A DNA stretch of 64,000 bases from an uncultured Candidatus Saccharibacteria bacterium (GCA_964355515.1 CAYHDV010000003.1:7914-71913); one strand, 5' to 3'; shown: positions 833 to 45,651, counted from the stretch's first letter. Notes: generated by a model from the letters alone, not told the origin. Numbers and translations: made by a program.

Positions 833-1005
833 CCGCAGGATGTTGGCAACATGAAGGAGAGAGATTTTTTACTTCTTTTGAAAGAGAACAAAGCTGTTTT
901 CTTTCAAAAGAAGTAGTACATATTACCAACATCCTATGGTGACTCATATTTTATTATTATCACATAGCCTGTATCTCTCTTTTTTTATTTCTTTACTTAC
1001 ATCAT

Positions 1006-1083
1006 ACTCGCAATGAAACCTCGAATCTATTACAACTCAAGATTTCAATAACGAGGGCAAGCGATTTTTAAGTCGCTTGCCCG
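1006..1083. repeat. Conserved 52-bp imperfect-palindromic element plus adjacent stem-loop (copy 1)
   Basis: actcgcaatgaaacctcgaatctAttacaactcaagatttcaataacgaggg is 51/52 identical to copy 2 at 1734-1785. It is followed by the hairpin gcaagcgatttttaagtcgcttgc. Confidence 0.7.
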
Positions 1084-1161
1084 TTTGTGATTAACCCTAA
1101 CCCGTTATCAGTCCAGGAAGAATTTGACGTCTACCTGGAGGTTCCATCCCCCCCTCTCACT

Positions 1162-1710
1162 TCAATGGCCATCCAGCCAATTGAAGAAATTGTTCTCCGC
1201 TCCTGCCACCACTTCTGGTGACAGTCCAGCCAATGGGGAGGAGTACCCCATTTGGCCGTAATACATTTTTTTAGTATCAAACGGAGGGCAAAATGCCTCC
1301 GGAAACTGAGCCTCTTTATTTTTTTGGGCTTCAGTCAGCCCGCCCTCCCCAAGGAGGGCCAGTTGCCACCACTTGTTCTGGTGGCCATCAGTTATCTGGA
1401 TGTTCCCCACCCGGAAGGATGGGTTGCATCCAAAGGTAAAGAGGTCCCCTCTCGGATTCCTCTCTTCTTTTGCAGCCTGGAACTGGCTGCAAAATTTAAT
1501 AGTCCTCTCTTCCGAGGGACTATCAAATATTTCTCTCGATATGATTGTCAGGGGAATCTCTTCCGCTAACAGGTAATTAATCATCTCGCCATTATCTGGC
1601 CAGATTGTTCCGTTCGCTAGAACCTGATTAATTTTTATCTTTTTCATACTCTCTTCCCTTGCCATCTCTGACTTGAAACCTGCAATAGCAGGAACTTTCC
1701 ACGGGATCAT
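1162..1710 (-). CDS. Hypothetical protein (182 aa), no recognisable domain
   Basis: Long ORF with a coding-like composition, immediately followed on its own strand by the conserved 52-bp element. Confidence 0.5.
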   Translation of the reverse strand: MIPWKVPAIAGFKSEMAREESMKKIKINQVLANGTIWPDNGEMINYLLAEEIPLTIISREIFDSPSEERTIKFCSQFQAAKEERNPRGDLFTFGCNPSFRVGNIQITDGHQNKWWQLALLGEGGLTEAQKNKEAQFPEAFCPPFDTKKMYYGQMGYSSPLAGLSPEVVAGAENNFFNWLDGH

Positions 1711-1733
1711 GGATTGTTTTTAGTTTAACTTTT

Positions 1734-1809
1734 ACTCGCAATGAAACCTCGAATCTCTTACAACTCAAGATTTCAATAACGAGGGAAAGCAGAAACCATC
1801 TGCTTTCCC
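1734..1809. repeat. Conserved 52-bp element plus adjacent stem-loop (copy 2)
   Basis: Direct repeat of 1006-1057. Followed by a different hairpin, gaaagcagaaaccatctgctttcc. Confidence 0.7.
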
Positions 1810-1819
1810 TATATAACCC

Positions 1820-2569
1820 TTATTCCCTCAGCCACTGCTGGATGAAGGTACCCAACCCTGCAAATTCTTGCAGGTCTTGAATTGTTTTGGGAAAAATATC
1901 CCTGGGGTTTTCAGCCCCTCTTTTCATACCTAGTGAACGACCAAGATAATGGCCATCCGCTATCCTTACTCCGACCTTCTTCTCTTGGAAGAAGGGAAGG
2001 ATTTTTTCTTCCAAAAATTTTTTCTGGAAGAAACCTTCCCAAGATTTCTCTTGGGAGGACTCCCATTCGACTACATCCATTGCGGTGTAGCCAATGTTCT
2101 TTAAGTTTTTGTAGACAAAATCTTTGTCTACAAAAACAGAAAATGGATCTTCTACTAAAGACCCATATCCAGAGAAGTCTCCGGACCACCAGCCTAACTG
2201 GCTGATGTCTTCTCTTGATAACTGGGTTTCTATCCCAGCAATATAAATGTTATCAATATGGATAACATTTATGTTGTACTTTTTATTTTGAACTGGGAGA
2301 TTAACTCCCAATTCATGAAGTACCTCTGGGTTTTTAATCCGGAGGTATCCTCTCCCCACCACTTCGTAGTGGAGGGTTTTCGCAATCTCTCTTGGAAGAG
2401 CAACCACGCTCTCCCATTTTAGATTTTGACCACAATCATAGTGGTCAAGTAGCCCTAAGGCTATCTTGAAGTCTGGGCCAGAGCTTAACTCTGGCAAAAC
2501 TTTTGCAATGTTCCCAAAAGAGGGATTCATCGGGAAAAGATTATATTGATGCACTTTTTTCTCATTCAT
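1820..2569 (-). CDS. Hypothetical protein (249 aa)
   Basis: Long ORF. Not recognised. Followed on its own strand by copy 2 of the conserved element. Confidence 0.55.
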   Translation of the reverse strand: MNEKKVHQYNLFPMNPSFGNIAKVLPELSSGPDFKIALGLLDHYDCGQNLKWESVVALPREIAKTLHYEVVGRGYLRIKNPEVLHELGVNLPVQNKKYNINVIHIDNIYIAGIETQLSREDISQLGWWSGDFSGYGSLVEDPFSVFVDKDFVYKNLKNIGYTAMDVVEWESSQEKSWEGFFQKKFLEEKILPFFQEKKVGVRIADGHYLGRSLGMKRGAENPRDIFPKTIQDLQEFAGLGTFIQQWLRE

Positions 2570-2647
2570 TTTTTCTTGTTTTGGTTACTTTTACTCACGA
2601 AAAATCGCAGACAAAAGTAACCAAAACAAATAGGTTTGAATTCCCTA

Positions 2648-2681
2648 CCCAGCACCAATTTCAATTGAAATTGGTGCTGGG
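2648..2681. promoter_or_regulatory. Perfect 34-bp palindrome cccagcaccaatttcaattgaaattggtgctggg, about 80 bp upstream of the 1820..2569 gene
   Basis: 17-bp perfect arms with no flanking T-tract. An operator or cruciform is more likely than an intrinsic terminator. Confidence 0.4.
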
Positions 2682-3512
2682 ATAAGAAAGGCAAGTTGAT
2701 CTTGCCAACAACAGTCAGACGGATTGAACCGTTTGATGATTGAAGAATTTTTTCCATCTCTTTTTTGGTTTTGAGATGAATACTTTATCCGTCCGAATCT
2801 CGCTCTTTGGATAAATAGCGCCCTGTTTTGTGTCTAGGAATGACAACGGTTTTCACCGCAAATATACACACGCTACACATGCATATATTTGCGGTATCGA
2901 AAAGTGCCTCTCTCCTTGCACTGCTCAATACCATTTAATTTTTTAATAACCAGCTCACAAAAATCCTGTCGTGATTTTCTCACCTGTGCAGATGTGATGT
3001 GCCTGGGTTTATTCTATTGTCAAAGTTCTTTTCTCTTTATTACTCTCTCCTTTTGAGAATCCTAAAGATATTTCTGGGAGTAAGACGGGTTAGTTTCTTA
3101 CTTGCCCAGTCGATATCTCTACGATACGATGTGATACTTTTTTCCGACAGCCGACCAAAGGTTTGACTGCGACCCTACACACTGAAGGAGTGATTGCTTT
3201 TGCGAACAATTTCACTTCGGGAGGATAATATCTATGCAAAACTTTAAAGTTATATATTTGACCACTATCCACTTCTTTGTGCTCTCCTCACTCTCTCCTT
3301 AATTAGAGTGAAGAACGGTCAGCTATATATCTTTTTATTTGAAAGAACTTAATTAACTTTCTTGTCTATATAATAGCATCTATTCCTTGTTTTGTCAATT
3401 AATTGTGATTAAATTTATTAAATAGGTCAAAATACGTTGATAAATAAAGCTTTTTTAGTTATCCACATTGTCACAGTTGTATGACAATTACAAATAATGT
3501 ACCATAAAAGGT

Positions 3513-5979: not shown

Positions 5980-6178
5980 ACCCCAAATTATACACCACTA
6001 GCTCAAAATACAACCCTCTGTTATACTTGGCTTGTTATTAGATTAAATATACAGACCTGACCGTAGATACCGACATGACCCGTACCGACAATGAAAACTC
6101 TTTCTTCTTGAATTTTTTCACGACATACCTAAACCGACATAAATAAAACGTATCTAACCGAAGGGTCTTTGACCACAT

Positions 6179-7705
6179 ATGAATATAAAAATAATTATCT
6201 TTTTTGCTCTTACACTTTGTGTGGGAGGAGCTTTGGGATATGCACTACGATATCTCCTTGCAATAGGAAAGCGTGGCGGAGTGGAGCTAGAAATAAAGCA
6301 GATGATAGTAGATGCAAAAGAAGAGGCGTCTAGAATAACCGATGAATCAAAGAAAAAGGCAGAATTAAAAGAGCTAGAACTTAAAAAAGAAGAGAGAGAA
6401 CGAGAGTCAGAATTTAAAAAGACAGAAGACCGATTTATAAAAAAAGAAGAGCTTTTGGATGCAAGACAAGTAGAGCTAGACAAAGAATCAGAAGATATCA
6501 AAAGAAGACTAACAGACATAACAGAAAAACAAGAATTATTAGCTGATCTCGAAACAAAGAAACAAGATGAGCTTTCTAAGATTGCCCAAAAAACAAAGGA
6601 GGAGGCGCTCGAAGAAATATTTATTTCAATAGAAAGACAATACAGTGAAGACTTGCTTGCTCGAACTCAAAAGCTAGAACTTGCAAACAAAGAAAAACTC
6701 GACGCAAGAGCTCGTGATATTTTGACTATGTCTATTCAAAGAATGGCAAACGCCAATGTTTCAGACATCATGACAACAAACGTCACCCTATCTTCAGATG
6801 AAGAAAAAGGTAAGATTATCGGAAAAGAAGGTAGAAATATTCGTGCATTTGAAAGAGCTGCTGGAGTGGAGCTTATTGTAGACGACACGCCAGGGGTTGT
6901 GATTATTTCTGCGTTTGATCCTGTGCGACGACAAGTGGCACGTGTAGCACTTGAACACCTGATCGCCGATGGTAGAATCCAACCAGCAAAAATAGAAGAA
7001 GTGGTGAAAAAATCACAAGAAGAAGTAAACAACATAATCAAACAAAAAGGGGAAGAGGCTGTCTATGAACTTGGAATATATAACTTTGATCCACGAATTG
7101 TGGCTATTCTGGGGCGACTTTATTTCCGAACAAGCTACGGACAAAACGTCCTTCAGCACTCAGTAGAGATGGCACACATCGCAGCCATGATCGCAGAAGA
7201 GCTTGGGGCTGATGTAGCGGTAGCAAAGGCTGGAGCATTGGTGCATGACATAGGAAAGGCTCTTACACACGAAGTCCAGGGATCCCATGTTGATATTGGA
7301 ATAAGAATCCTTACAAAATTCGGAGCAGAAAAAGCAGTGATAGATGCAATGAAGAGTCATCATGATGAGTACCCATATGAAACCCTTGAAGCTCATATCG
7401 TCCAAACAGCAGATGCTATCTCAGGTGGAAGACCGGGGGCCAGACGTGATTCAGTAGAAAATTACTTGAAACGACTAGAGGAGCTAGAAAAAATAGCAAC
7501 AAGCCAAAAAGGTGTTGAGAAGGCTTATGCCCTATCAGCCGGGAGAGAAATCCGAGTGTTTGTAACACCAGAAAATATTTCTGATATTGAAGCCAAAGAA
7601 ACAGCAAGAGAAATTGCAAAAAACATTGAAGCAAATCTCAAATACCCAGGTGAAATACGAGTTGTGGTTATTCGAGAAAATAGAGTGATTGAGTTTGCAA
7701 GGTAG
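6179..7705 (+). CDS. rny: Ribonuclease Y
   Basis: N-terminal TM helix, coiled-coil, KH domain (KGKIIGKEGRNIRAFE) and HD domain (HSVEMAHIAAMIAEELG...HDIGKA). Confidence 0.9.
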   Translation: MNIKIIIFFALTLCVGGALGYALRYLLAIGKRGGVELEIKQMIVDAKEEASRITDESKKKAELKELELKKEERERESEFKKTEDRFIKKEELLDARQVELDKESEDIKRRLTDITEKQELLADLETKKQDELSKIAQKTKEEALEEIFISIERQYSEDLLARTQKLELANKEKLDARARDILTMSIQRMANANVSDIMTTNVTLSSDEEKGKIIGKEGRNIRAFERAAGVELIVDDTPGVVIISAFDPVRRQVARVALEHLIADGRIQPAKIEEVVKKSQEEVNNIIKQKGEEAVYELGIYNFDPRIVAILGRLYFRTSYGQNVLQHSVEMAHIAAMIAEELGADVAVAKAGALVHDIGKALTHEVQGSHVDIGIRILTKFGAEKAVIDAMKSHHDEYPYETLEAHIVQTADAISGGRPGARRDSVENYLKRLEELEKIATSQKGVEKAYALSAGREIRVFVTPENISDIEAKETAREIAKNIEANLKYPGEIRVVVIRENRVIEFAR

Positions 7706-7725
7706 TAGACTCAACATTTGGAAAA

Positions 7726-7754
7726 GACCCGCCCCCTAGGGGGCGGGTCTTTTC
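7726..7754 (+). terminator. Terminator after rny
   Basis: gacccgcccccta/gggggcgggtc hairpin plus T-tract. A second hairpin at 7772-7798 serves the minus-strand gene. Confidence 0.7.
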
Positions 7755-7808
7755 TCTTACCCAACCAAAACAAAAAGGACCACACACGGTGGTCCTTTCA
7801 TGCTTTCC

Positions 7809-8048
7809 TCATGGCTTCTTTTTTCCAAATGTCTTGTTCCAAATGAGGGATAACCCCAAAAGCATCAAAATCAAAGGAATGAGAGCATTCATTACAAGTG
7901 AGTAAATCGCAGTTATGATTGTCTGTTGTAGTTCTGGGCTGAACATGACAATCAAGGTGAGTATGCTCAATATGATAATCACAGTTCTCTTTGGTTCCCC
8001 AAAAAAGAAATCCATCCATTTTTCTCCAGTATTTTTTTCGTCAGCCAT
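7809..8048 (-). CDS. Small hypothetical membrane protein (79 aa)
   Basis: Two hydrophobic helices. Bracketed by terminator hairpins. Confidence 0.4.
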   Translation of the reverse strand: MADEKNTGEKWMDFFFGEPKRTVIIILSILTLIVMFSPELQQTIITAIYSLVMNALIPLILMLLGLSLIWNKTFGKKKP

Positions 8049-8269
8049 GGCTTCTAGATTTTTAAATTTTTTTGATTTATTCTATTATATCAGATAATAG
8101 AATTATGTCAATCTATTATTTTTGCCAAAATCCCTTGCATGAAAAATACGTTGATATATAATGGTTTCTGAGACAGTGAGTATTCCCTACCCACTGCTCA
8201 CAGATAAATCAGAGCTTTGGTCGAGAAGTTATAAGTTAAATATGGCACTTCAAGTGTCAGAATAAAACT

Positions 8270-8542
8270 ATGAACAAAGCATCACTAGTAGAGATTGTTC
8301 ACGCAAAACTTGGTGGAACAAAAGTTCAAGCAGAAGATGTAGTAAATGGAATCTTTGATTCAATTATCGCATCTATGAAAGCTGGAAATGATGTTTCTAT
8401 TGCTGGATTCGGTATTTTTGCCGTAAAAAGACAAGCCGCACGAACAGCTCGAAACCCAAGAACAGGAGATACTGTTCAGGTAAAAGCTAAAAATGCTCCA
8501 AAATTCAAAGCTGCAAAAGCTTTGAAGGACGCAGTTAACTAA
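8270..8542 (+). CDS. hup: DNA-binding protein HU
   Basis: 90 aa. HU signature (GFGIFAVKRQAARTARNPRTGDTVQV). Confidence 0.9.
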   Translation: MNKASLVEIVHAKLGGTKVQAEDVVNGIFDSIIASMKAGNDVSIAGFGIFAVKRQAARTARNPRTGDTVQVKAKNAPKFKAAKALKDAVN

Positions 8543-8697
8543 TACCTTATATTTTTTGTATACAAGAAATATATCGGCGACCTAAAAAATTGCCACCTTA
8601 CAAAAAAGACCCATTGTGAAATGGGGCTTTTTTGTTTCTAATACTTGCCGAACAATCGGTTTTTTGCTACTATACATTTCGTTATTAAGAACACCGA

Positions 8698-8770
8698 GGG
8701 GGTGTAGTATAACGGCTCATTATGCCTGCCTTCCAAGCAGGAGATCGGGGTTCGATTCCCCGCACCCTCA
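8698..8770 (+). tRNA. tRNA-Gly (anticodon UCC)
   Basis: Acceptor gggggtg/caccctc. Anticodon arm cctgc-cttccaa-gcagg. T-arm cgggg-ttcgatt-ccccg. The D-arm is atypical (3-bp stem). Followed by a terminator hairpin. Confidence 0.75.
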
Positions 8771-8774
8771 CAAA

Positions 8775-9215
8775 ACACTAGAGTCACCATGCAACGCATG
8801 GTGGCTTTTGTGTTTTACAGGTAGTAAGGGGAATCGAACCGAGCCCCGACGAAGTCTTTCGAGTATAACGAGAAAGCCGGGGCGAGTGGCGGCTGATGGA
8901 ACGAGATTTTTTGTGAGTGAAACGAAGCAAAAAATCCGTGAGAGGAGCCTATTCCCCGCACCCTCACAAATCTAAAAAGTCATGAATTACTCCATGGCTT
9001 TTTAGATTCTCGAGACGGGGGCGAGAAAGCAAATTTCTTTGCTTTCGTGGGAATCGAACCAGCGGAGCCATATTTCGAACAAAGTGAGAAAAAGCGAGAT
9101 GCGTCCAGCAGTACTTACTTCGCAGAAAATCTTTGATTTTTGAGAAAGTTAGTAACTGCGGGATCATTCCCCGCACCCTCACAAAGAAACAAAGACGCCA
9201 ACCTGGCGTCTTTGT
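8775..9215 (+). repeat. Two decayed tandem copies of tRNA-Gly (pseudo-tRNAs). The 20-nt tRNA 3' end attccccgcaccctcacaaa is directly repeated at 8951-8970 and 9166-9185, each copy followed by its own terminator hairpin
   Basis: Repeats fall at 196 and 215 bp spacing. The units retain D-arm-like (gtgagtgaaacg, gttagtaactgcgg) and acceptor/T-arm fragments. Inverted T-arm-like gggaatcgaacc is present in both units. Confidence 0.6.
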
Positions 9216-9216
9216 T

Positions 9217-9885
9217 TTACCACTCAATCCTCTTCTCATCTCTCCCCTCCAAATACTCATTACACGTAGAGAAATGTTTGCACCCCAGAAATCCTGTGTA
9301 TGCAGAAAATGGTGATGGGTGTGGAGCTTCGAGGACGAGGTGTTTACTTGTGTCTATAAGCGACTTTTTACTTCGAGCAAAATTCCCCCACAACATAAAA
9401 ACCACCCCTTCTCTCTCGTCAGAAATTGTTTTGATGACTGTATCTGTAAAATCTTCCCAGCCATGCCCTCTGTGTGATGCTGGCTGGCCAGAACTCACAG
9501 ACATAATAGCATTCAAGAGAAAAACCCCTTGTCTTCCCCATTCCTCCAAATTACCTTTCGTCACATCTTTTTTAATTCCCAAATCACTTTCAATTTCCTT
9601 ATAAATATTTTTAAGAGATGGTGGCGGAGTGACTCCATCTGGCACAGAAAAACAAAGTCCATGTGCCTGTCCCTCTCCATGATACGGGTCCTGACCAAGT
9701 ATCACCACTTTTACATTATCAAATGGTGTGAACTCAAAAGCCTTGAATAATTCCTCATGTTTTGGATACACAGTCTTTGTTTTGTATTCACTCTGGATAT
9801 ATTGAGAAAGATTTGCCCATGTCTCCGACTGGAAAAACTCCCCCAATCTCCCCTTCCAGCTTTTTTCTATACCAATCTCTTGCAT
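9217..9885 (-). CDS. ung: Uracil-DNA glycosylase (family 1)
   Basis: VVILGQDPYH, GVFLLN and HPSP motifs. 222 aa. Confidence 0.9.
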   Translation of the reverse strand: MQEIGIEKSWKGRLGEFFQSETWANLSQYIQSEYKTKTVYPKHEELFKAFEFTPFDNVKVVILGQDPYHGEGQAHGLCFSVPDGVTPPPSLKNIYKEIESDLGIKKDVTKGNLEEWGRQGVFLLNAIMSVSSGQPASHRGHGWEDFTDTVIKTISDEREGVVFMLWGNFARSKKSLIDTSKHLVLEAPHPSPFSAYTGFLGCKHFSTCNEYLEGRDEKRIEW

Positions 9886-10099
9886 GTGGTAAGTATAACA
9901 AAAAACCTCTTCCCGAGGTTTTTTGTTATAGCCTTAATGGTCTTTCTATTTGTCCGTTACTTAGTCGGGGCTCGGATTATTTTTCTGCGGAATATTTCAT
10001 ATTCCGCTTTATTAAAAAAATAATCCCAGAGTCACTCCGCTACGCGCCACGGAGCAGGAGTATTTGCTCCGGCTTGATTCCTCTAAATTAGTCACTAGG

Positions 10100-10172
10100 T
10101 CGGAGTGCCGGGATTCGAACCCGGAGTCACTCGTACCCAAAACGAGCATGTTAGCCGTTACACCACACTCCG
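10100..10172 (-). tRNA. tRNA-Pro (anticodon UGG)
   Basis: Minus-strand cloverleaf. Acceptor cggagtg/cactccg, D gtgt/acat, anticodon arm ctcgt-tttgggt-acgag, T-arm ccggg-ttcgaat-cccgg. Confidence 0.8.
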
Positions 10173-10927: not shown

Positions 10928-10933
10928 ACAAAT

Positions 10934-10957
10934 TACTTAGAGGTTCAACCTCTAAGT
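10934..10957. repeat. REP-like palindrome cttagaggttCaacctctaag, abutting the RAYT stop codon
   Basis: 8-bp stem cttagagg/cctctaag with a 5-nt loop. The same element sits at 11406, 11615 and 11751. Confidence 0.7.
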
Positions 10958-10958
10958 C

Positions 10959-11597
10959 TTAGTCCAGCAAAAGATTGTCTAGTTTTTTGTCTTCCTGTCG
11001 CCTTTCTGCAATGGCATGCACAAGACCAAGGCTATTTTCTCGATAGTCTTCACTATTTTGGTATTGTCCTAGAATAATATCTGGATGTACGAGCTTTTTA
11101 GATGTTTCATGTGAAACATATTCAGGCCAACTGGATACATATAAATCCCCTTCTCCAAGGCCATGAACCATATAATTCAGGTTTACATATGCTCCAAGGT
11201 AAAGTAAATATTCGTTTGTGGCAATATGTTTCACTTTATATCGTCCCTGAAAAAGTGACCCCGATCGTTCATATTTATCGTTAAAGTACATAGTATATCC
11301 TGTGCCAACCTTCTGCATAAACTTTTCGATACCACCTTCAACAAGTGGTGTTAAAATCATATGAAAATGGTTTGGGTTTAAACAAAAGGCTACAATCTCA
11401 ACCAACTTAGAGGTTGAACCTCTAAGTTTTCCATACTTCATCACATGCAATCCACCAAATGAGTCAATTGTATTTAATTTGTTTAAATGCCGAAGAAAAA
11501 CCTTCAAATCTTCTTTGTCTTGGAATACCGTTCGTTTATCTACACCGCGATTGTATACATGGTAGTATTCTCCAGGCATAAGTGATATACGTTTCAT
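10959..11597 (-). CDS. IS200-like Y1 (HUH) transposase / REP-associated tyrosine transposase (RAYT)
   Basis: YHVYNRG N-terminal block, HuH motif (NPNHFHMIL) and catalytic Tyr context (QGRYKVKHI). Flanked by REP-like palindromes. Confidence 0.8.
   Translation of the reverse strand: MKRISLMPGEYYHVYNRGVDKRTVFQDKEDLKVFLRHLNKLNTIDSFGGLHVMKYGKLRGSTSKLVEIVAFCLNPNHFHMILTPLVEGGIEKFMQKVGTGYTMYFNDKYERSGSLFQGRYKVKHIATNEYLLYLGAYVNLNYMVHGLGEGDLYVSSWPEYVSHETSKKLVHPDIILGQYQNSEDYRENSLGLVHAIAERRQEDKKLDNLLLD
11406..11426. repeat. REP-like palindrome inside the RAYT ORF (in-frame, encodes KLRGSTSKL)
   Basis: Exact copy cttagaggttgaacctctaag within the coding sequence, between the N-terminal block and the HuH motif. 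Confidence 0.7.
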
Positions 11598-11614
11598 ATG
11601 AAACAGTGTAGCAC

Positions 11615-11635
11615 TTAGAGGTTGAACCTCTAAGT
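11615..11635. repeat. REP-like palindrome 18 bp upstream of the RAYT start
   Basis: Exact copy. Confidence 0.7.
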
Positions 11636-11750
11636 AAAGTCTCTTAAACTTGTTAATAACTAAGGTTTTTATTTTATAAAAGACTTTCTCTAATTATAAA
11701 AGACTGTCCTTTATCCACGTTACACCCAAGCTTTTCCACAGAATAAAGGA

Positions 11751-11771
11751 CTTAGAGGTTGAACCTCTAAG
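11751..11771. repeat. REP-like palindrome
   Basis: Exact copy between the RAYT and tRNA-Arg. Confidence 0.7.
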
Positions 11772-11898
11772 TCATCACCGGGCTGATTGAGGCTCTACTT
11801 ACGCCATTCTTCTGGCAGTTCATCCTTATAGTATCCCTTGATACCAGTAAAAAACAAAGAAAACCCACTGCTTTTGCAGTAGGTTTTCTTTGTTTTTG

Positions 11899-11970
11899 TG
11901 CACCCGGAGGGATTCGAACCCCCAACGACGGTTCCGAAGACCGGTATGATATCCATTTCACTACGAGTGC
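11899..11970 (-). tRNA. tRNA-Arg (anticodon UCG)
   Basis: Minus-strand cloverleaf. Acceptor gcactcg/cgggtgc (one G-U), D gtga/tcat, anticodon loop cttcgga, T-arm ggggg-ttcgaat-ccctc. Terminator hairpin downstream. Confidence 0.7.
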
Positions 11971-12141: not shown

Positions 12142-13716
12142 GTGAATATGTACCAAAGGGGCACTATCAAAGAGTTCGAATCTCTATATCCACACAATAA
12201 ATCAATGCAAACAATGCATTTCCATATACCAGAAGAAGTGATAAAGGCTACAAAAACCCTAAAAGATAGGGGCTTTGAGGCATATCTTGTGGGTGGCTGT
12301 GTGAGAGATCTATTAACAGAGAAAAAACCAAAGGACTGGGATATTGCAACCAATGCAAAACCCGAGGAAATACAAGCTTTGTTCGTAAAAACAGTCTATG
12401 AAAATAACTTCGGGACAGTGGCTGTTGTAAATGAAGAGCTGGGGCTGGATGATCCACTGCGGGTTATAGAGATAACCCCATATAGAACAGAGAGCAACTA
12501 CAGCAACAACCGCCATCCAGACTCGGTGTCTTTTAGTGAAAATCTAGAAGAGGATCTAAAGAGACGAGACTTCACCATGAACGCAATAGCCGTTGAAATT
12601 AAAGGGTTTATAAAAGACATTGATAAAGGACATGAGGTGATTATAAACGACATGTATGGTGGTATAAAGGACATTCAGAGACAAGTCATAAAAGCGGTAG
12701 GGAATGCGGATGAAAGATTCAAGGAAGATGCACTCCGAATTATGCGGGCTATCCGGTTTTCTTCACAGCTTGGTTTCATGGCAGATTCAGAAGTTATGGA
12801 AGCTATGGGGAAAAACAAAGAACTCCTAGCCAATATCTCCCACGAAAGAATCCGGGATGAGCTAATCAAAATAATAAATTCAGATGACCCAATGATAGCG
12901 TTCGTCACTATGCAAAAACTAGGAATCCTACCCTATGTCATACCTGAACTTGAAGAAACAATAAAAATAGAGCAAGGAGGCGAACATATCTATGATGTGT
13001 GGGAACACTCACTTCGAGCTCTCCAAAATGGGGCAGACAAGAAATATGCGTTTCATGTGAGACTCGCGTCGCTCCTTCACGATATAGGGAAGCCAAGGAC
13101 AAGAAGGCCAGATCCACAGGGAAAAGGTTGGACTTTCTACAACCATGAAGTGGTGGGGGCAAAAATGGCAAAAAAGATACTTGAGAGGCTCAACTTTTCA
13201 CGTGAAACAATAAGCACTATTGTTTCACTCGTACGGTGGCACATGTTTTTCTCTGATCCTGATCAAATCACCCTCTCTGCTGTAAGACGACTTATCCGAA
13301 ATGTGGGACCTGAGCTGGTATGGGACTTGATGGATGTCCGGCGTTGTGACCGAATAGGTATGGGACGACCAAAAGAATCTCCATACAGACTAAGGAAATT
13401 TGAATCAATGATAGAAGAAGTAAGTCGAGACCCCGTGTCTGTAAAGCAACTTAAACTCAATGGAGATATCATGATTGCAGAGCTTGGTATGAAACCCGGA
13501 AGGGAAATCGGCTGGATACTGCATGCGCTGCTAGAAGAGGTCCTGGATGACCCAAACAAAAACGAGCTTGAATATCAAAAAGAGCGAGCACTCGAGCTCT
13601 CCAAACTACCGCAAGATGCACTAAGAGAACTAGGCGAAGCAGGGAAGGAAGCCACAGAAGAAGCCGAAGAAGCCGAGCTGAAAGAAATTCGTAAGAAGCA
13701 TAAGGTGGGGAAATAG
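12142..13716 (+). CDS. cca: CCA-adding tRNA nucleotidyltransferase with HD domain and E/K-rich C-terminal tail
   Basis: GGCVRDLLTEKKPKDWDIATNAKPEE head domain. HD motif LLHDIGK. 524 aa. Confidence 0.85.
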   Translation: MNMYQRGTIKEFESLYPHNKSMQTMHFHIPEEVIKATKTLKDRGFEAYLVGGCVRDLLTEKKPKDWDIATNAKPEEIQALFVKTVYENNFGTVAVVNEELGLDDPLRVIEITPYRTESNYSNNRHPDSVSFSENLEEDLKRRDFTMNAIAVEIKGFIKDIDKGHEVIINDMYGGIKDIQRQVIKAVGNADERFKEDALRIMRAIRFSSQLGFMADSEVMEAMGKNKELLANISHERIRDELIKIINSDDPMIAFVTMQKLGILPYVIPELEETIKIEQGGEHIYDVWEHSLRALQNGADKKYAFHVRLASLLHDIGKPRTRRPDPQGKGWTFYNHEVVGAKMAKKILERLNFSRETISTIVSLVRWHMFFSDPDQITLSAVRRLIRNVGPELVWDLMDVRRCDRIGMGRPKESPYRLRKFESMIEEVSRDPVSVKQLKLNGDIMIAELGMKPGREIGWILHALLEEVLDDPNKNELEYQKERALELSKLPQDALRELGEAGKEATEEAEEAELKEIRKKHKVGK

Positions 13717-20150: not shown

Positions 20151-21083
20151 TTATTTTTTATTTCCATGAAACTTTTTATGAATTTCTTTTAGGTGTTTGT
20201 TTGTAACGTGGGTATAGATTTGAGTGGTAGAAATATCTGCGTGTCCAAGCATAACCTGCACAGACCTAATATCAGCTCCATTTGAAAGCAAGTCAGTGGC
20301 GAAACAGTGTCGAATCACATGGGGGGTAACCTTCTTTGTGATGCCGGCGATGGTGGCGTACTTTCTCACAATCCTTCCAACAGATCTTCTATCTAAACCT
20401 TTTTCATCATCTACTTTGTTTTTGTTTTTTGAGACATTTACAAATAGTGCTTCCGAGAAGTCTTTTCGTTGTGTGAAATATTTTTTTAGGGAATCTTTGG
20501 CTTCTGCAGATAGAAATACTACTCGGAGTTTGCCACCCTTTCCTCTAATCGAAAATTCATCTCGAGAAAAATCAATGTCTCTAAAGAGGGAACAGAGCTC
20601 TGACACACGGAGGCCAGTAGAAAAAAGCATCTCTAGTATCGCCTTGTCTCTATATCTGATTTCTAAATTCTTTTCTTTTTCGGGAGCCTCTAGGAGCCTC
20701 TTTAGTTCCTGATCTGAAATAACATCAATTTGTCTTTGGGGGACTTTTCCTAGTTCAATCTGTTCTGAAGAAAGAGTTTTTTCTCCTCGTCTTGTCATGT
20801 ATTTCAAAAAAGACCGCAAGGCAATCAGGTGATAGTTCTGAGTACTCTTTGAGAGTGTTTCTCCTGTTCTTCTGTTGTGGCTGGCTCCGGCTGATTGTCT
20901 GTGAAGCCAAATCCGAAACTCTCTCACCATGTCATCTGTTATTTGCTGTGGCTTGGTGGCCCCTGTTTGTTTCAAGAAGACATTTAGATAGTGGTCGTAG
21001 TTTCTAATAGTATTCAAAGCTCGACCTTTTTCGATTTCTAGATACTCAAGAAACTGTCTTTTTAATTTTTCTAAATCATTCAT
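20151..21083 (-). CDS. Site-specific tyrosine recombinase, XerC/XerD family
   Basis: N-terminal SAM-like core-binding domain. Catalytic R..HxxR..Y region (LRVSEL, HVIRHCFATDLL, TQIYTHV). Confidence 0.85.
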   Translation of the reverse strand: MNDLEKLKRQFLEYLEIEKGRALNTIRNYDHYLNVFLKQTGATKPQQITDDMVREFRIWLHRQSAGASHNRRTGETLSKSTQNYHLIALRSFLKYMTRRGEKTLSSEQIELGKVPQRQIDVISDQELKRLLEAPEKEKNLEIRYRDKAILEMLFSTGLRVSELCSLFRDIDFSRDEFSIRGKGGKLRVVFLSAEAKDSLKKYFTQRKDFSEALFVNVSKNKNKVDDEKGLDRRSVGRIVRKYATIAGITKKVTPHVIRHCFATDLLSNGADIRSVQVMLGHADISTTQIYTHVTNKHLKEIHKKFHGNKK

Positions 21084-24869: not shown

Positions 24870-25400
24870 ATGATTACAAAACACAAAGAACAGCGAGTGG
24901 CTGTTTTTATAGATACACAAAATCTATACCACTCAGCGAAAGCGCTTTATAAGAAAAAAGTTAACTTTGGAAACATTGTTAAAGATGCGGTGGGAGACCG
25001 AAAACTTGTTCGAGCTCTCGCATATGTTATCGCCTCTGAAGCAGGGGACGAGGATTCGTTTTTTGAAGCACTTGGAAAGGTAGGAATCGAAACAAAAGTA
25101 AAAGACCTGCAAGTATTTTCAAGCGGAGCAAAGAAAGCTGACTGGGATGTGGGGCTTGCGGTGGACGCAATCACTATTGCTCCAAAAGTGGATGCAGTGA
25201 TAATTGTCTCTGGAGATGGGGACTATGTACCCCTGGTGCACTATCTACAAATACATTCTGGAATCCAGGTGGAAGTGGTATCCTTTGGGAAGTCCACGTC
25301 ATCTTGGCTACGAGAAGAAGTGGATGACTTCTTTGATCTATCTATAAATCCAAATCAATACTTGATAGGAAGTAGACGGCCGATGAAAAATAAAAAGTAA
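24870..25400 (+). CDS. NYN/LabA-like (PIN-fold) domain protein
   Basis: VAVFIDTQNLY...VSGDGDY pattern of the NYN/DUF88 family. Confidence 0.75.
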   Translation: MITKHKEQRVAVFIDTQNLYHSAKALYKKKVNFGNIVKDAVGDRKLVRALAYVIASEAGDEDSFFEALGKVGIETKVKDLQVFSSGAKKADWDVGLAVDAITIAPKVDAVIIVSGDGDYVPLVHYLQIHSGIQVEVVSFGKSTSSWLREEVDDFFDLSINPNQYLIGSRRPMKNKK

Positions 25401-41141: not shown

Positions 41142-41543
41142 ATGAGATTTAAAGTTCCGCAATTTATAGATATTGAAGACAAAATCTTTGGTCCGCTTAC
41201 ATTTAAGCAGTTCATGTATATGGGAGGAGGGCTGGGTCTCACTTATGTTACATACAGATTTCTTCCACTCTATGGAGCGCTCCCTATCATGGCAGCCATC
41301 CTTGCTCTTTCTTTTTCTCTGACATTTGTCGAGATAAACAAAAAGCCATTCATCTATATTCTAGAGGCCTACATCAGATATATCATTGGCTCAAAAATGT
41401 ATCTTTGGAAAAAGGTTTCCAAGAGAGAGGCGACAGGAGCAGTAAGTAAAAGTGTTCAAAAAGAAAAAGTGGAAACACCAAAACTGACAGAGGGTAGGCT
41501 GAAGTCTCTTTCTCTGGGGCTTAATATTATTGAAGAAAACTAA
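41142..41543 (+). CDS. PrgI/VirB3-like small membrane protein
   Basis: MRFKVPQFIDIEDKIFGPLTFKQFMYMGGG, then two TM helices. Immediately upstream of VirB4, as in Gram-positive T4SS. Start set at the ATG at 41142; the tracked ORF starts at an upstream TTG. Confidence 0.55.
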   Translation: MRFKVPQFIDIEDKIFGPLTFKQFMYMGGGLGLTYVTYRFLPLYGALPIMAAILALSFSLTFVEINKKPFIYILEAYIRYIIGSKMYLWKKVSKREATGAVSKSVQKEKVETPKLTEGRLKSLSLGLNIIEEN

Positions 41544-41545
41544 TC

Positions 41546-42172
41546 ATGGCGACAAAACCTACACAAGAATTTATACCGATCCAAGAAATCCGAAATGGAA
41601 TTCTTGTCTTGCGCGATGGTTCACTCCGAGCAATCCTTATGACCTCTGCAGTAAACTTGGCTCTAAAGTCTTCTGACGAACAACAGGGGACAGTGTATCT
41701 TTTCCAAAGTTTTCTAAACTCTCTTGATTTCCCAATTGAAATTGTGGCTCAATCAAGAAAGCTTGATATCAAGCCCTATCTAGAAGCGCTCAATGTGCGA
41801 GAAACTGTAATAGAAGAGCCTCTTTTGAAACTCCAAATCAGAGAGTATGTAAGCTTCGTCAAAAACTTCACCGATCAGATAAACGTTATGAAGAAGCATT
41901 TTTTTGTTGTTATTCCATTTACACCAAATACTGTTTCATCAAATTCAAGTCTTATTTCTGGGTTATTTGGTGGAAAGAAAGCTAAAACAATTTCAGCAGA
42001 AGACTTCGGTGAATACATGTCTCAACTGGAACAAAGAATTTCTCTTGTTCAGTCTGGACTTTCTCGTGTGGGAGTGAAGAGTTCTCTTTTAAACAACGAG
42101 GAGTCTATCGAGCTTTTTTATACAATATTTAATATGGGAGATGGAAGTAGTTCTCTATCAATGGATAATTAA
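41546..42172 (+). CDS. VirB4/TrbE-family N-terminal domain (split gene, part 1)
   Basis: EFIPIQEIRNGILVLRDGSLRAILMTSAVNLALKSSDEQQ...FLNSLDFPIEIVAQSRKLDIKPYLE matches the conserved VirB4 N-terminus. Confidence 0.6.
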   Translation: MATKPTQEFIPIQEIRNGILVLRDGSLRAILMTSAVNLALKSSDEQQGTVYLFQSFLNSLDFPIEIVAQSRKLDIKPYLEALNVRETVIEEPLLKLQIREYVSFVKNFTDQINVMKKHFFVVIPFTPNTVSSNSSLISGLFGGKKAKTISAEDFGEYMSQLEQRISLVQSGLSRVGVKSSLLNNEESIELFYTIFNMGDGSSSLSMDN

Positions 42173-42177
42173 TACCT

Positions 42178-44238
42178 ATGAGCCTTTTCGACAAACTAAC
42201 AAAAAAAGATATCAAACCAACAGGTCCACAAGCGCTCCCTGTTCTTCCTGAGGAAATATACAAGACTGCAAACCTAGAGTTGCAAGATATCCTAGCTCCC
42301 GGAGCTTTGAAAATCCAACCCAAGACCCTCAACCTCGGAGAGGAGCTTGCTCGAACATATTTTGTGGTTTCCTATCCAAGATACCTGACAGACAATTGGT
42401 TTACACCTATCATCAACCTAGACAAGATTTTCGATGTTTCTATTCATATTCATCCAGTAGATACATCCACAATCCTTAAAAAGTTTGAAAAAAAGGTAGC
42501 CGAAGTACAAAGTCAAATCGAGGCTCGTTCAGAAAAAGGTGTCGTGCGAGACCCAATTCTCGACACCGCATATCATGACTTGGAAGACCTGCGGGACAAT
42601 CTCCAGCAGGCACAGGAGAAAATATTTGAAGTAGGGCTATACATCACAATATACGCAAAGACAGAAAAAGAGCTTTCTGAAATAGAAACAAAGATTAAGT
42701 CTATATTGGAATCAAAGTTGGTTTACCTCAAGCCAGCACTCTTCCAACAAAAAGAAGGTTTCTTGAGTACCATGCCAATTGGCGATGACCAGCTAGCTGT
42801 CCACCAAAAGATGAATTCTGCACCACTGTCCTCTCTATTTCCTTTTGTTTCTTTTGACCTTACAGATGAGAAGGGGATCCTCTATGGGATAAACAGACAA
42901 AACTCAAGTTTGGTTATTTTTGATAGATTCTCTATGCCAAACTACAACTCAATCACCTTTGCCACCTCAGGAGCCGGGAAATCTTTTGCAACAAAACTTG
43001 AGGTATTGCGTTCCATGATGTTTGATACAAACGTAATTGTTATCGACCCAGAGCGAGAGTATGAGTCTCTTGCAGAAGCAGTTGGTGGACGATTCTTCAA
43101 CATCTCTCTTTCTTCAGAGCACCATATCAATCCATTTGATCTACCAAAACCAAGTGAAGATGAAACACCAGCGGATGTTCTTCGGGGGACAACCATTAGT
43201 CTCGTGGGACTATTTCGAATCATGCTTCAGGGTCTAACTCCAGAAGAAGATGCTATCGTGGACCAGGCTATCACCCAAACATACGCCCTAAAGGATATCA
43301 CCGCCGAGGGAAGCTTTGAGGGGAAAGAACCTCCACTTCTTTCTGATTTTGAAATGGTCTTGCAAGGGATGGATGGTACAGATTCTGTTCTACAAAAACT
43401 TTCCAAATTTACAAGTGGGTCTTGGTCTACATTTATGAATAAGCCCACAAACGTGGATATTGATAAGAAATTCATTGTATTTTCTGTACGAGACATGGAA
43501 GACGACCTCAAGCCTGTTGCCATGTATCTTGTAACCCAATTCATCTGGACAGCTATTCGAAAAAATATCCAAAAAAGAATTCTAGTGGTGGATGAGGCTT
43601 GGTGGATGATGAAATCAGAAGATACCGCAAGCTTCCTATATAGCATGGCAAAGCGAGGAAGAAAGTATTACCTAGGGCTTGCCACAATCACCCAAGACGT
43701 GGGGGACTTCATGCGGTCAAAATATGGAGTGCCTATTGTTACAAACTCTTCTATTCAGCTTCTTTTGAAGCAATCACCAAGCACTATTGATGTTCTCCAA
43801 AAAACATTCAACCTGACCGATGAAGAAAAATACCTTCTTCTTGAGGCAAACGTGGGTGAAGGGATATTCTTTGCCGGCCTAAAACACGTTGCAATTAAAA
43901 TCATTGCTTCATATACCGAAGAGCAGATTATCACCTCAGATCCTGCCCAGATTCTGGCAATCCAAAGAGCAAAAATAGAAAAGAGAGAAGTTGCTGCTGT
44001 GGTAGAAGAACAAAACAAAGAAAAAATACAAACTGTCATGAAAGAACAAGCTCAAATCCAAAAAGATAAAGAGCTTGAAGAAAATTTGCGTATCAAAGAA
44101 GAAGTAACTGAGGCCAAAAAAGAAGAGGTTTCTCTCCCCGATAGCACAGCTCCAAAAGAAACTAATTCTCTCCAAAGTTTCTCTGACAATCTAGATAGTG
44201 AAATATCAACACTTGAGAACGAACTTGGGGGATTCTAG
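42178..44238 (+). CDS. VirB4/TrbE/CagE-family T4SS ATPase (part 2, ATPase domain)
   Basis: YPRYL motif, Walker A SGAGKSF, DPEREY, Walker B ILVVDEAWWM. 686 aa. Different frame from part 1, with a 5-bp gap. Confidence 0.85.
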   Translation: MSLFDKLTKKDIKPTGPQALPVLPEEIYKTANLELQDILAPGALKIQPKTLNLGEELARTYFVVSYPRYLTDNWFTPIINLDKIFDVSIHIHPVDTSTILKKFEKKVAEVQSQIEARSEKGVVRDPILDTAYHDLEDLRDNLQQAQEKIFEVGLYITIYAKTEKELSEIETKIKSILESKLVYLKPALFQQKEGFLSTMPIGDDQLAVHQKMNSAPLSSLFPFVSFDLTDEKGILYGINRQNSSLVIFDRFSMPNYNSITFATSGAGKSFATKLEVLRSMMFDTNVIVIDPEREYESLAEAVGGRFFNISLSSEHHINPFDLPKPSEDETPADVLRGTTISLVGLFRIMLQGLTPEEDAIVDQAITQTYALKDITAEGSFEGKEPPLLSDFEMVLQGMDGTDSVLQKLSKFTSGSWSTFMNKPTNVDIDKKFIVFSVRDMEDDLKPVAMYLVTQFIWTAIRKNIQKRILVVDEAWWMMKSEDTASFLYSMAKRGRKYYLGLATITQDVGDFMRSKYGVPIVTNSSIQLLLKQSPSTIDVLQKTFNLTDEEKYLLLEANVGEGIFFAGLKHVAIKIIASYTEEQIITSDPAQILAIQRAKIEKREVAAVVEEQNKEKIQTVMKEQAQIQKDKELEENLRIKEEVTEAKKEEVSLPDSTAPKETNSLQSFSDNLDSEISTLENELGGF

Positions 44239-44275
44239 TGTTTTGTCTCTTGTGAATCCATAGTATGATATACAC

Positions 44276-44662
44276 ATGGATACAGATGATCAAAAAATAT
44301 CTGAAGAATTAGAAAGCTTGGAAAAGGCATTCGAGGAAGAGACTGCTTCCTCTCCCATTGCTGAAATAAAAGTGAATACACCCCAAGCTCAAACAGTTGG
44401 AGGTTTTTCACACACAATAACCTCCCTAAAAGAAACCGATTCCAAAATAGCTGGGAAAATAGAAACCTTAAAGAATCTAGCAAAAAGTGAGTTGGATAAA
44501 CTAAAAGAATTAAAAAATAGTATCGCAAAAAAAATAGCAGATATAAAAGAGCTTGCTGAAACAAGAGAAAAAATCAAAAAAGAGATCGAGAAAATATCGG
44601 GATTAGAATCTGAAGTAAATTCAATAACAGAAGAAGCAACTCATGAACTTGGCAATCTATAA
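44276..44662 (+). CDS. Coiled-coil hypothetical protein (128 aa)
   Basis: E/K-rich heptad-like sequence. Confidence 0.45.
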   Translation: MDTDDQKISEELESLEKAFEEETASSPIAEIKVNTPQAQTVGGFSHTITSLKETDSKIAGKIETLKNLAKSELDKLKELKNSIAKKIADIKELAETREKIKKEIEKISGLESEVNSITEEATHELGNL

Positions 44663-45650
44663 AAAAATATACATTGTTTTTTCTTTCATCTTTGTTTTTG
44701 GTGTGGCTTGTTTTCTTTTCATCTCTACCGCCATGGCTCAGACAGAAAGCTTTTCTTTTGAGGTCTACCCCAAGAATCCAGCACCTCAGGAAGTGGTAAA
44801 AGCTTCTTTGTCGAGTTTTTCTGTTGACTTAGACAAAGCTCACATCACATGGACAGTGGATGGTAATACTATTCTATCCGGAATGGGTGAGAAATCGGCT
44901 AGCATAAAAACCAAAAACCTGGGCGAGGTAACTGTTGTAAAGGCTGTTGCGGTGTTCGCTCAAGGCCAGAGAATAGAACAAACCTTAATCATCCAACCTG
45001 CGTATCTGGATATTCTCTGGGAATCAACAGACTCTTATACTCCTCCTTTTTACAAAGGAAAAGCTCTTCCTTCGCAGGAGAGCACCCTTAAGGTTGTCGC
45101 TATTCCAGAAATCAAAAACTACGCAGGTCAAAAATACAAGCCAGAACACCTCATCTACACATGGAAAAAGGGTATAGAAACTCAAACAAATAACTCCGGC
45201 TTTAATAAGCAATATTTCTCTTTTAAACATAGCGTCTTTGACAAAGAGCAAAGAGTCAACATAGAAGTGGCAAGCCAAGATGGGTATAGTGGTGGAGAGG
45301 GATCAGCATTGATTACTTTTTCTAATCCTCGTGTGGCTGTATATCAAGAAACCTCTCAAAAAGGTATAAACTTTGCCAGCGAGCTTTCTCAAAATTCATT
45401 ATCAAGCAGGGGTAAGACAAGTCTTGTAGCTATCCCATACTTTTTTTCAACAAACTCTCATGGGGAGAGCGGTCTTTCCTATCAGTGGACAGTAAATGGA
45501 AATACAGCCACCCCACAAAATACAAAGAATAAAATTACCTTAGAGAAAACGGGGGAGGATGCTGGTCTTGCAGAAGTAGAGGTATCCATTAAAAGTGTTT
45601 CTAAACTTTTTCAAGATGGGCTTAAAAAATTTAATATAGAATTGCAATAA
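44643..45650 (+). CDS. Secreted/membrane-anchored hypothetical protein (335 aa)
   Basis: N-terminal TM or signal segment. Confidence 0.5.
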   Translation: MNLAIYKKIYIVFSFIFVFGVACFLFISTAMAQTESFSFEVYPKNPAPQEVVKASLSSFSVDLDKAHITWTVDGNTILSGMGEKSASIKTKNLGEVTVVKAVAVFAQGQRIEQTLIIQPAYLDILWESTDSYTPPFYKGKALPSQESTLKVVAIPEIKNYAGQKYKPEHLIYTWKKGIETQTNNSGFNKQYFSFKHSVFDKEQRVNIEVASQDGYSGGEGSALITFSNPRVAVYQETSQKGINFASELSQNSLSSRGKTSLVAIPYFFSTNSHGESGLSYQWTVNGNTATPQNTKNKITLEKTGEDAGLAEVEVSIKSVSKLFQDGLKKFNIELQ

Positions 45651-45651
45651 T

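Follow-up and report, generated by a model that had tools for sequence, protein, structure and literature searches.

Two short units downstream of a tRNA-Gly gene in an uncultured Candidatus Saccharibacteria bacterium appear, from their sequence and predicted fold, to be full-length members of an apparently undescribed family of structured, gene-less elements, which we call tRNA-tail elements; we found no description of this family in the literature. The family numbers more than 100 copies at 16 or more tRNA types, is often arranged in tandem, and is common in Patescibacteria. The units lie directly 3′ of a tRNA gene of the same orientation and end with a direct repeat that extends from the T loop to the tRNA 3′ end, while on their 5′ side an inverted copy of the T loop and T stem is predicted to pair with this repeat (helix P1) and to close a three-way junction. 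Taken as a whole, they are probably non-autonomous, att-type mini-elements that accrete at tRNA 3′ ends. All coordinates without a contig label refer to the 64,000-nucleotide stretch that was analyzed (GCA_964355515.1, CAYHDV010000003.1:7914-71913), hereafter the window.

The tRNA-Gly locus

The genome is of Patescibacteria (Paceibacteria-like) type. The local order is RNase Y, HU, tRNA-Gly, the two units, a convergent UDG gene, tRNA-Pro, YraN, a RAYT gene with REP palindromes, tRNA-Arg, and a CCA-adding enzyme. The tRNA-Gly(UCC) gene (8698-8771, plus strand) is intact according to ARAGORN, scores 64.6 bits with the Rfam tRNA model, and has the same sequence in two relatives (L179 and L175). 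It does not encode CCA, nor do the other two tRNA genes (10098-10172 and 11898-11970), and the gene for the CCA-adding enzyme (12142-13716) adjoins tRNA-Arg. Among the loci listed in detail, a C occupies position 74 even in tRNA genes that lack CCA (CAA, CAG, CTA and similar).

As a preliminary description of this DNA had stated, the 20-mer ATTCCCCGCACCCTCACAAA is found three times on the plus strand, at 8755, 8951 and 9166. The three copies are exact (0 mismatches), and there are no others at up to 3 mismatches across the 64-kb window (shuffle mean, 0.01). Only copy 1 (8755-8774) is within a real tRNA-Gly(UCC); it runs from A58 of the T loop to 4 nt beyond the discriminator, and thus consists of the last 16 nt of the working tRNA plus 4 flanking nucleotides. 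Copy 2 (8951-8970) closes unit 1 on the right and bounds unit 2 on the left, and copy 3 (9166-9185) is a displaced tRNA 3′-end fragment that adjoins the terminator on the UDG side.

Each copy is followed directly by a hairpin and a T-rich run, also in agreement with the preliminary description. The first of these hairpins, P0 of unit 1 (8775-8816, plus strand), resembles an intrinsic terminator, with the segment 8780-8808 flagged by the terminator scan, and is predicted to serve as the present terminator of tRNA-Gly. P0 of unit 2 (8969-9008, plus strand) is a similar terminator-like stem with a T-run, formed by inverted repeat I19 (8969-8984/8993-9008). The third hairpin (9187-9217, plus strand; inverted repeat I22, 9187-9200/9204-9217) is common to the convergent UDG gene (9217-9885, minus strand) and, in the alignment with the sister species L179, is at the same position as the single terminator of that species, which is the ancestral position against UDG. 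In sequence, the first and third terminators of the window are about equally similar to that of L179, so the ancestral flank cannot be assigned locally within the window.

Farther downstream, the partial tRNA-Pro duplicate and the RAYT that had been reported are both present. The former is a decayed unit (9925-10097, minus strand) behind tRNA-Pro (10098-10172, minus strand). The RAYT gene (10959-11597, minus strand; Pfam Y1_Tnp) is flanked by four REP palindromes, ACTTAGAGGTTSAACCTCTAAGT, whose copies are confined to 10930-11773; a separate 17-bp palindrome, GTTTCAYRTGAAACA, is found five times (10620, 10716, 11104, 11591 and 12023). The window also encodes an NYN-domain protein (24870-25400) and a type-IV-secretion-like cluster (41142-47370) with PrgI, a VirB4/TraC-like ATPase, and a pilin.

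Two diverged cores between identical repeats

The two intervals between the repeats match a covariance model, R2, that was trained solely on 14 foreign units with a long P3, from other organisms and other tRNAs. Both matches are on the plus strand and full length (model positions 1-145): 8818-8968 with 33.5 bits (E 2.5e-8) and 9038-9183 with 30.5 bits (E 2e-7), where the E-values are rough, coming from a shortened calibration. The next best score in the 128 kb searched is 9.7 bits, and 843 kb of viral and Bacteroidales control loci gave 0 matches at E≤1. A narrower model, R1, built from short-P3 units, does not detect the window units and was replaced by R2 after alignment revealed strings common to the window and the long-P3 units; R2 itself is blind to three further core classes (B, C and D). 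The scores of the window units, about 30 bits, are low relative to 45-138 bits for the family, and the helix P2a and the base of P3 are imperfect in them, which suggests that they are divergent or slightly decayed members.

The core of unit 1 (8818-8968, plus strand) is supported by the R2 match, the fold, the inverted T-arm match, and the sequence of a foreign unit (L298). Its inverted T loop/T stem, IR-L (GGGGAATCGAACC, 8828-8840), is predicted to form P1 with AUUCCCC at 8951-8957 (GGGGAAU/AUUCCCC); between the P1 strands are a P2 hairpin (GCCCCG...CGGGGC) and a P3 hairpin, the apex of which, GAGTGAAACGAA, matches the P3 apex of L298. The core of unit 2 (9038-9183, plus strand), supported by the R2 match, alignment, and fold, has the IR-L GGGAATCGAACC (9049-9060), with GGGAAU/AUUCCC as the predicted P1. 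Its CGGA-P2-GAG module includes a 17-mer, TTCGAACAAAGTGAGAA, identical to P2 of another foreign unit (L201), and the 3′ strand of its P3, TTAGTAACT, matches class-A units. The inverted T-arm fragments noted earlier are real: GGGAATCGAACC, at 8829 and 9049, is the perfect reverse complement of the tRNA-Gly T arm (8749-8760), and the window contains 6 inverted T-arm matches against 0.18 expected. A 12-mer, CCGAGCCCCGAC, followed by [G/T]AAGT, is shared by the P2 5′ strand of unit 1 (8839-8855, plus strand) and the tRNA-Pro remnant (9959-9975, minus strand), in the same orientation relative to the tRNA of each; this sharing suggests chimerism or recombination between elements.

The preliminary description viewed the two downstream units as decayed tandem copies of the tRNA, and a duplication of tRNA-Gly with its terminator followed by decay would account for a period of about 200 bp, roughly the length of a tRNA transcription unit, and for the resemblance of the three terminators to one another and to that of L179. 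It fares poorly with everything between the repeats. ARAGORN and Rfam call no tRNA in either unit, so this is not a simple tRNA array, and in neither orientation do the interiors significantly resemble tRNA positions 1-57 (35, 144, 340 and 448 of 500 shuffles score as high or higher). What had been described as D-arm-like fragments comes down to a single 9-mer shared with the D arm, AGTATAACG, confined to unit 1. In the model alignment, with the tRNA-dependent strands left out, the units are 43% identical to each other, while the 20-mers that flank them are 100% identical in all three copies; each unit is 52-58% identical to foreign units, and each ranks the other only 57th of 73 and 47th of 96 among family members. 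An inverted T-arm copy, moreover, would not be expected from a direct duplication, nor would matches to a model derived from other tRNAs in other organisms. On the R2 match, the comparison with the tRNA body, and the 43% identity, we reject tandem duplication and decay, which we consider exceedingly improbable. The same comparisons indicate that the two units are independent, diverged copies, the apparent result of two insertions rather than of one duplication.

Open reading frames of at least 40 aa across 8775-9185 overlap on both strands and extend across tRNA and repeats alike, and the gene calls of the source contig include none of them. The impression that little cargo is left at this site was mistaken: the units are not random remnants but full-length matches to a conserved, covariation-supported family that has no ORF.

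A family of elements behind tRNA genes

For every tRNA in the collected loci, the 600-700 nt downstream were scanned for a repeat of the tRNA 3′ end. The same layout was recovered in four further Patescibacteria genomes, behind tRNA-Ser, tRNA-Asp, tRNA-Ser and tRNA-Ser. Where genomes were sampled without regard to units, 7 of 50 tRNAs score, and among viral contigs only 1 of 514, a tRNA array with no unit. The four new units have tRNA-independent motifs in common, and a three-block pattern made from them matched at least 120 stretches of metagenomic sequence; a tRNA on the same strand lies just upstream of 84 of the 123 pattern matches, representing 16 amino-acid types among the matches listed. 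Searches with the covariance model returned 114 matches, 82 within 250 nt after a tRNA, 3 after another unit, 13 at contig ends, and 16 orphans, several of which are explained by intervening elements of the serine-recombinase type.

The elements are about 110-220 bp long and contain no ORF. Their consensus reads tRNA, hairpin P0, IR-L, (U)CGAA, G-N-C, GGA, P2, GA, G-N′-C, GGGUCG-P3-UGACC, GA, and repeat, with the repeat of each unit's own tRNA placed after a conserved GTGAC. Both the repeat and IR-L match the local tRNA in each of the 16 or more tRNA types. Among the matches listed, 63 of 64 class-A units have a repeat beginning at C56, compared to A58 in the window units, and the most frequent repeat lengths are 19 and 21 nt, which correspond to an end at position 74 or after CCA.

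CCA follows the distal copy of the repeat in 26 of 85 cases (31%) and the proximal copy in 19 of 85 (22%); in tRNA genes without a unit the proportion is 53 of 169 (31%). The agreement between the distal copy and unit-less tRNAs fits an ancestral flank at the distal copy, which would be consistent with a Campbell-type insertion. A distal repeat that arises through reverse transcription of mature tRNA was considered and rejected, given that CCA is missing from 59 of 85 distal copies.

Arrays of three class-A units are present in L205 (652-1886), L269 (1156-1946, minus strand) and L267 (11749-12322, minus strand), indicating that stacking is common in the family. In L260 (about 6080-6340) and L183 (about 2450-2700, minus strand), units follow tRNA-like 3′ ends whose upstream bodies are not called by ARAGORN; both bodies contain CCGCCGATGAGGCRG and could represent either tRNAs that carry an insertion or some other tRNA-like RNA. 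In L266 (about 2390-2650) and L219 (about 6960-7220, minus strand), units are preceded by a conserved non-coding segment of about 200 nt (GGAGGAGACGCGAG..GCACACGCGAGTCCGCGAGCG..).

Occupied and unoccupied sites in relatives

Sister contigs were found through homologues of RNase Y, whereas UDG-based synteny in GTDB genomes returned no close relative. The tRNA-Gly site is unoccupied in the sister species L179, whose RNase Y is 83% identical: HU is followed by a tRNA-Gly identical base for base, a single terminator, and UDG, with no unit. At the orthologous tRNA-Pro, on the other hand, L179 has an intact unit (12351-12518, minus strand) with an exact 19-nt repeat. Here the layout is tRNA, CAAAA and a terminator, inverted T-arm motif, a core of about 105 nt, the 19-nt repeat, and a terminator; the core belongs to class B, common to units behind tRNA-Tyr in L185 and tRNA-Phe in L267. 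Because L179 lacks the tRNA-Gly unit and holds intact the tRNA-Pro unit that is decayed in the window, units seem to be gained, to be lost, and to decay over the time in which species diverge.

Both units are also present in a second strain (L082, ERR12084958), whose UDG protein is the same. It differs from the window by one T-to-G change at the base just before repeat copy 2 (matching window 8950), and it has different genes upstream of the CCA-adding enzyme.

A covarying three-way junction

In a MAFFT alignment of 20 units, 89.6% of the cells in the proposed helices are paired, compared to 68.9% in shuffles, with 123 double-change cells against 38, and slid registers pair at 33-46%. The corresponding values for 108 distinct sequences are 91.2% against 69.2% and 662 against 214, with 31-43% for slid registers, in an alignment that was fitted to R2 and is thus biased towards the structure. 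The P2a pair N:N′ takes all four Watson-Crick types. This covariation supports the three-way junction as a real fold.

IR-L is the Watson-Crick complement of the repeat and always pairs with its T-loop/T-stem part, but with the acceptor part only sometimes (fully in only about 8 of 50 units). We rejected IR-L as a copy of the 5′ acceptor and T-stem strands of the tRNA (a "top-half minihelix"), as it has A49 where the tRNA has G49.U65. Nor could the hammerhead, hairpin, HDV or twister ribozymes, tmRNA, or a k-turn be mapped by eye with a consistent fit, and Rfam was negative for them.

Such a fold raises the question of whether the units are structured non-coding RNA genes that work with the neighboring tRNA, whether by mimicking or sequestering its 3′ end, by assisting in processing or termination, or as ribozymes, and were spread by ordinary duplication and transfer. 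The strong helix covariation is on the tRNA-sense strand, and a G.T wobble fixed in 102 of 106 sequences favors the folding of that strand, as does the overall bias of helix G.T over A.C, which is only 95:59. P1 pairs a tRNA-like 3′ segment, and many class-A units have a hairpin after the tRNA that is not a terminator, making co-transcription possible. Against this, about 12 nt separate the strong terminators of the window from IR-L downstream, too little to accommodate a promoter. The terminal loops are atypical for RNA: approximately 150 include 5 GNRA and 2 UNCG, and many are C-GNA-G triloops, among them the GCGAAGC DNA mini-hairpin. When the units were searched with Rfam 15, only tRNA passed and all other families were far below threshold. 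Presence and absence between sister species, diverged tandem copies, and a distal ancestral flank also fit insertion better, and we consider a function as RNA genes, although it is the main rival, unlikely.

Recombinases at the same tRNA 3′ ends

Large serine recombinases, identified by the Pfam domains Resolvase, Recombinase and Zn_ribbon_recom, are encoded convergently with, and overlapping, tRNA 3′ ends at tRNA-Tyr in L229 (4303-5832), tRNA-Ser in L182 (element at 8567-10171 and 7432-8379), and tRNA-His in L245 (3229-4821). These are the only three full-length ones found. In L182 the element has further genes, for a G2P/RepSA-like replication initiator and an Ltp-like lipoprotein. In two of the three contigs (L229 and L182) units are in the same array as the overlapping recombinase, and in L229, L182 and L206 a unit is distal to an element of the serine-recombinase type; one L182 array (849-2199, minus strand) has four downstream copies of the tRNA-Ser 3′ end. 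Units and serine-recombinase elements thus share occupancy of tRNA 3′ ends. Together with the empty site in L179 and the recurrence of the layout behind many tRNAs, these overlaps mean that the preliminary description was broadly right to interpret the repeats as att-type duplications at a tRNA insertion hotspot.

The site is common, but the enzyme probably is not. The serine-recombinase elements have an att flank, GTTCCAAGTGCG/TCCC..., that is unlike those of the units and comes without the core, so we regard the action of these recombinases on units in trans as unlikely. The same right end of such an element, CGTTCCAAGTGCG/TCCCACCCTCTCCGC, is present in two unrelated contigs (L182, and L206 upstream of 481-625), both times just upstream of a class-A unit.

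The search for a cognate integrase came up empty next to the units: Pfam searches of 10 of the approximately 50 ORFs in the window detected no integrase in the ORFs that flank the units, and the sole recombinase among those scanned, the nearest to the units, is a Xer-like tyrosine recombinase 11 kb away (20151-21083, minus strand). Tyrosine recombinases linked in cis are not enriched, with one candidate in 795 kb of unit-bearing loci. The 20-mer ATTCCCCGCACCCTCACAAA has 0 matches in viral sequences and the class-A pattern 0 in IMG/VR, with no phage carrier found; a looser viral pattern, GGGAATCGAACC..ATTCCCC, gave 89 matches, all of them ordinary minus-strand tRNAs and hence uninformative.

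Larger serine-recombinase elements at the same tRNA 3′ ends, and the short relics bearing the att flank of such elements in the arrays of L182 and L206, could mean that the units are scars left by deletion within bigger integrated elements, such as phages, plasmids, or serine-recombinase islands. Random deletions would not be expected to yield more than 100 copies of one full-length architecture with compensatory changes, and the serine-recombinase right ends in L182 and L206 lack the unit core. No parent element that carries the core was found, and no ORF-containing intermediate between 600 nt and 8 kb, tandem arrangements aside. We judge an origin as deletion scars to be quite improbable.

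A model for accretion at tRNA 3′ ends

Under the mini-element interpretation, each element would have four parts. The first is a copy that replaces the tRNA 3′ end from the T loop on, followed directly by the element's own hairpin or terminator, P0, which together would keep the tRNA whole and terminated; the second is IR-L, in which the T loop and T stem are copied in inverted orientation; the third is the conserved three-way-junction core with P2 and P3; and the fourth, at the far end, would be the original tRNA 3′ fragment, displaced. This layout is what a Campbell-type insertion (attP x attB) into the segment from T loop to 3′ end could produce, and repeated insertion would result in tandem stacking. 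Because the elements encode nothing, a recombinase would have to act in trans. Pairing of IR-L with the repeat would allow the tRNA-sense strand to fold, presenting the att segment as a duplex on the three-way junction, and the folded hairpin may be the cis-acting site of the element. The integron attC and the folded attP of CTX phage are precedents for a folded, cis-acting att site. We infer actual mobility, the recombinase, and the folded molecule, whether single-stranded DNA or RNA.

The model makes specific predictions. Circle junctions would read GAGAGGAGCCT-ATTCCCCGCACCCTCACAAA-ACACTAGAGTC for unit 1 and CTGCGGGATC-ATTCCCCGCACCCTCACAAA-TCTAAAAAGTC for unit 2, an allele with one unit would read GGGGTTCG-ATTCCCCGCACCCTCACAAA-TCTAAAAAG, and the empty site GGGGTTCG-ATTCCCCGCACCCTCACAAA-GAAACAAAGACGCC.

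A more specific possibility, which we find doubtful, is that these are new recombinase-less mobile elements with their own targeting by a folded strand. The inverted tRNA segment would be a guide or half-site, pairing with the 3′ segment of the tRNA, and the junction either a single-stranded att site for a host recombinase (e.g., Xer) or a catalytic or guide RNA. In either version, this would explain how, in Patescibacteria, one core family could colonize almost every type of tRNA at its 3′ end.

The 3′ ends of tRNA genes are classic landing pads for genomic islands. In Patescibacteria they are also colonized, often several deep, by tiny gene-less elements in which the closing helix of a covarying fold is made from the target sequence itself. 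If these elements move, they do so with no encoded protein and with ends matched to each tRNA, raising the prospect of site-specific recombination guided by structure or nucleic acid in organisms with minimal genomes. Displaced repeats of this kind can mislead island finders, because such fragments are used to mark island ends, and the family constitutes a new structured motif for Rfam-type curation.

Comparison with known systems

Islands in tRNA genes are delimited by attL and attR with a displaced tRNA 3′ fragment, the definition used by Islander (PMC4383910). Like them, the units leave the tRNA intact, its end restored by sequence that the element brings, and have a displaced, directly oriented 3′ fragment at their far end and a repeat from the T loop to the 3′ end; several elements can be in tandem at one tRNA. 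Of the features by which islands are recognized, the window has the intact tRNA with displaced fragment and the unoccupied site in a relative, and lacks an internal integrase. The units differ from islands in their size of 110-220 bp with no integrase or ORF, in their conserved folded core and inverted att copy, and in the placement of one core family behind at least 16 tRNA types.

CIMEs are cis-mobilizable elements that take part in site-specific accretion with ICEs and IMEs (PMC5704250, PMC7563491). They resemble the units in being flanked by att sites, in lacking genes for recombination and transfer, and in their tandem arrangement with autonomous elements at the same site, as in L182, L206 and L229. 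Unlike the units, which are a uniform, tiny, and structured family, CIMEs are kilobase-sized deletion derivatives of particular ICEs; furthermore, the att flanks of the units differ from those of the co-resident serine-recombinase elements, making mobilization by the latter unlikely.

MITEs and the REP/BIME sequences associated with RAYTs are likewise small, non-coding, hairpin-rich, and multicopy, and in the window a RAYT with REP palindromes is just 1.7 kb from the units. The REP sequence is nevertheless absent from the units, which are strictly linked to tRNAs and have ends copied from the local tRNA. The bridge RNA of IS110 and the omega RNA or reRNA of IS200/605 are structured non-coding modules with sequence complementary or identical to the target, as in the units; in contrast to these, the units have no associated transposase or nuclease and no Rfam match, and the segment comparable to a guide consists of 7-19 nt of tRNA sequence that pair in cis.

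The arrays of integron cassettes with their attC hairpins and the folded, single-stranded attP of CTX phage and IMEX elements are further systems for comparison. The units differ in that they lack IntI, attI, and the GTTRRRY core, have repeats of tRNA sequence, have a target that extends from the tRNA T loop to the 3′ end rather than dif, and have a conserved three-way junction as their loop. The likeness is in the plan: a repeat, a short body, an inverted copy, a loop, and a repeat, with no recombinase gene inside. In a unit, some 100 nt separate the inverted from the direct att copy, and pairing between them on a single strand can present the site as a duplex; the fold and the loop types suggest that the tRNA-tail elements, too, could be used as single-stranded substrates.
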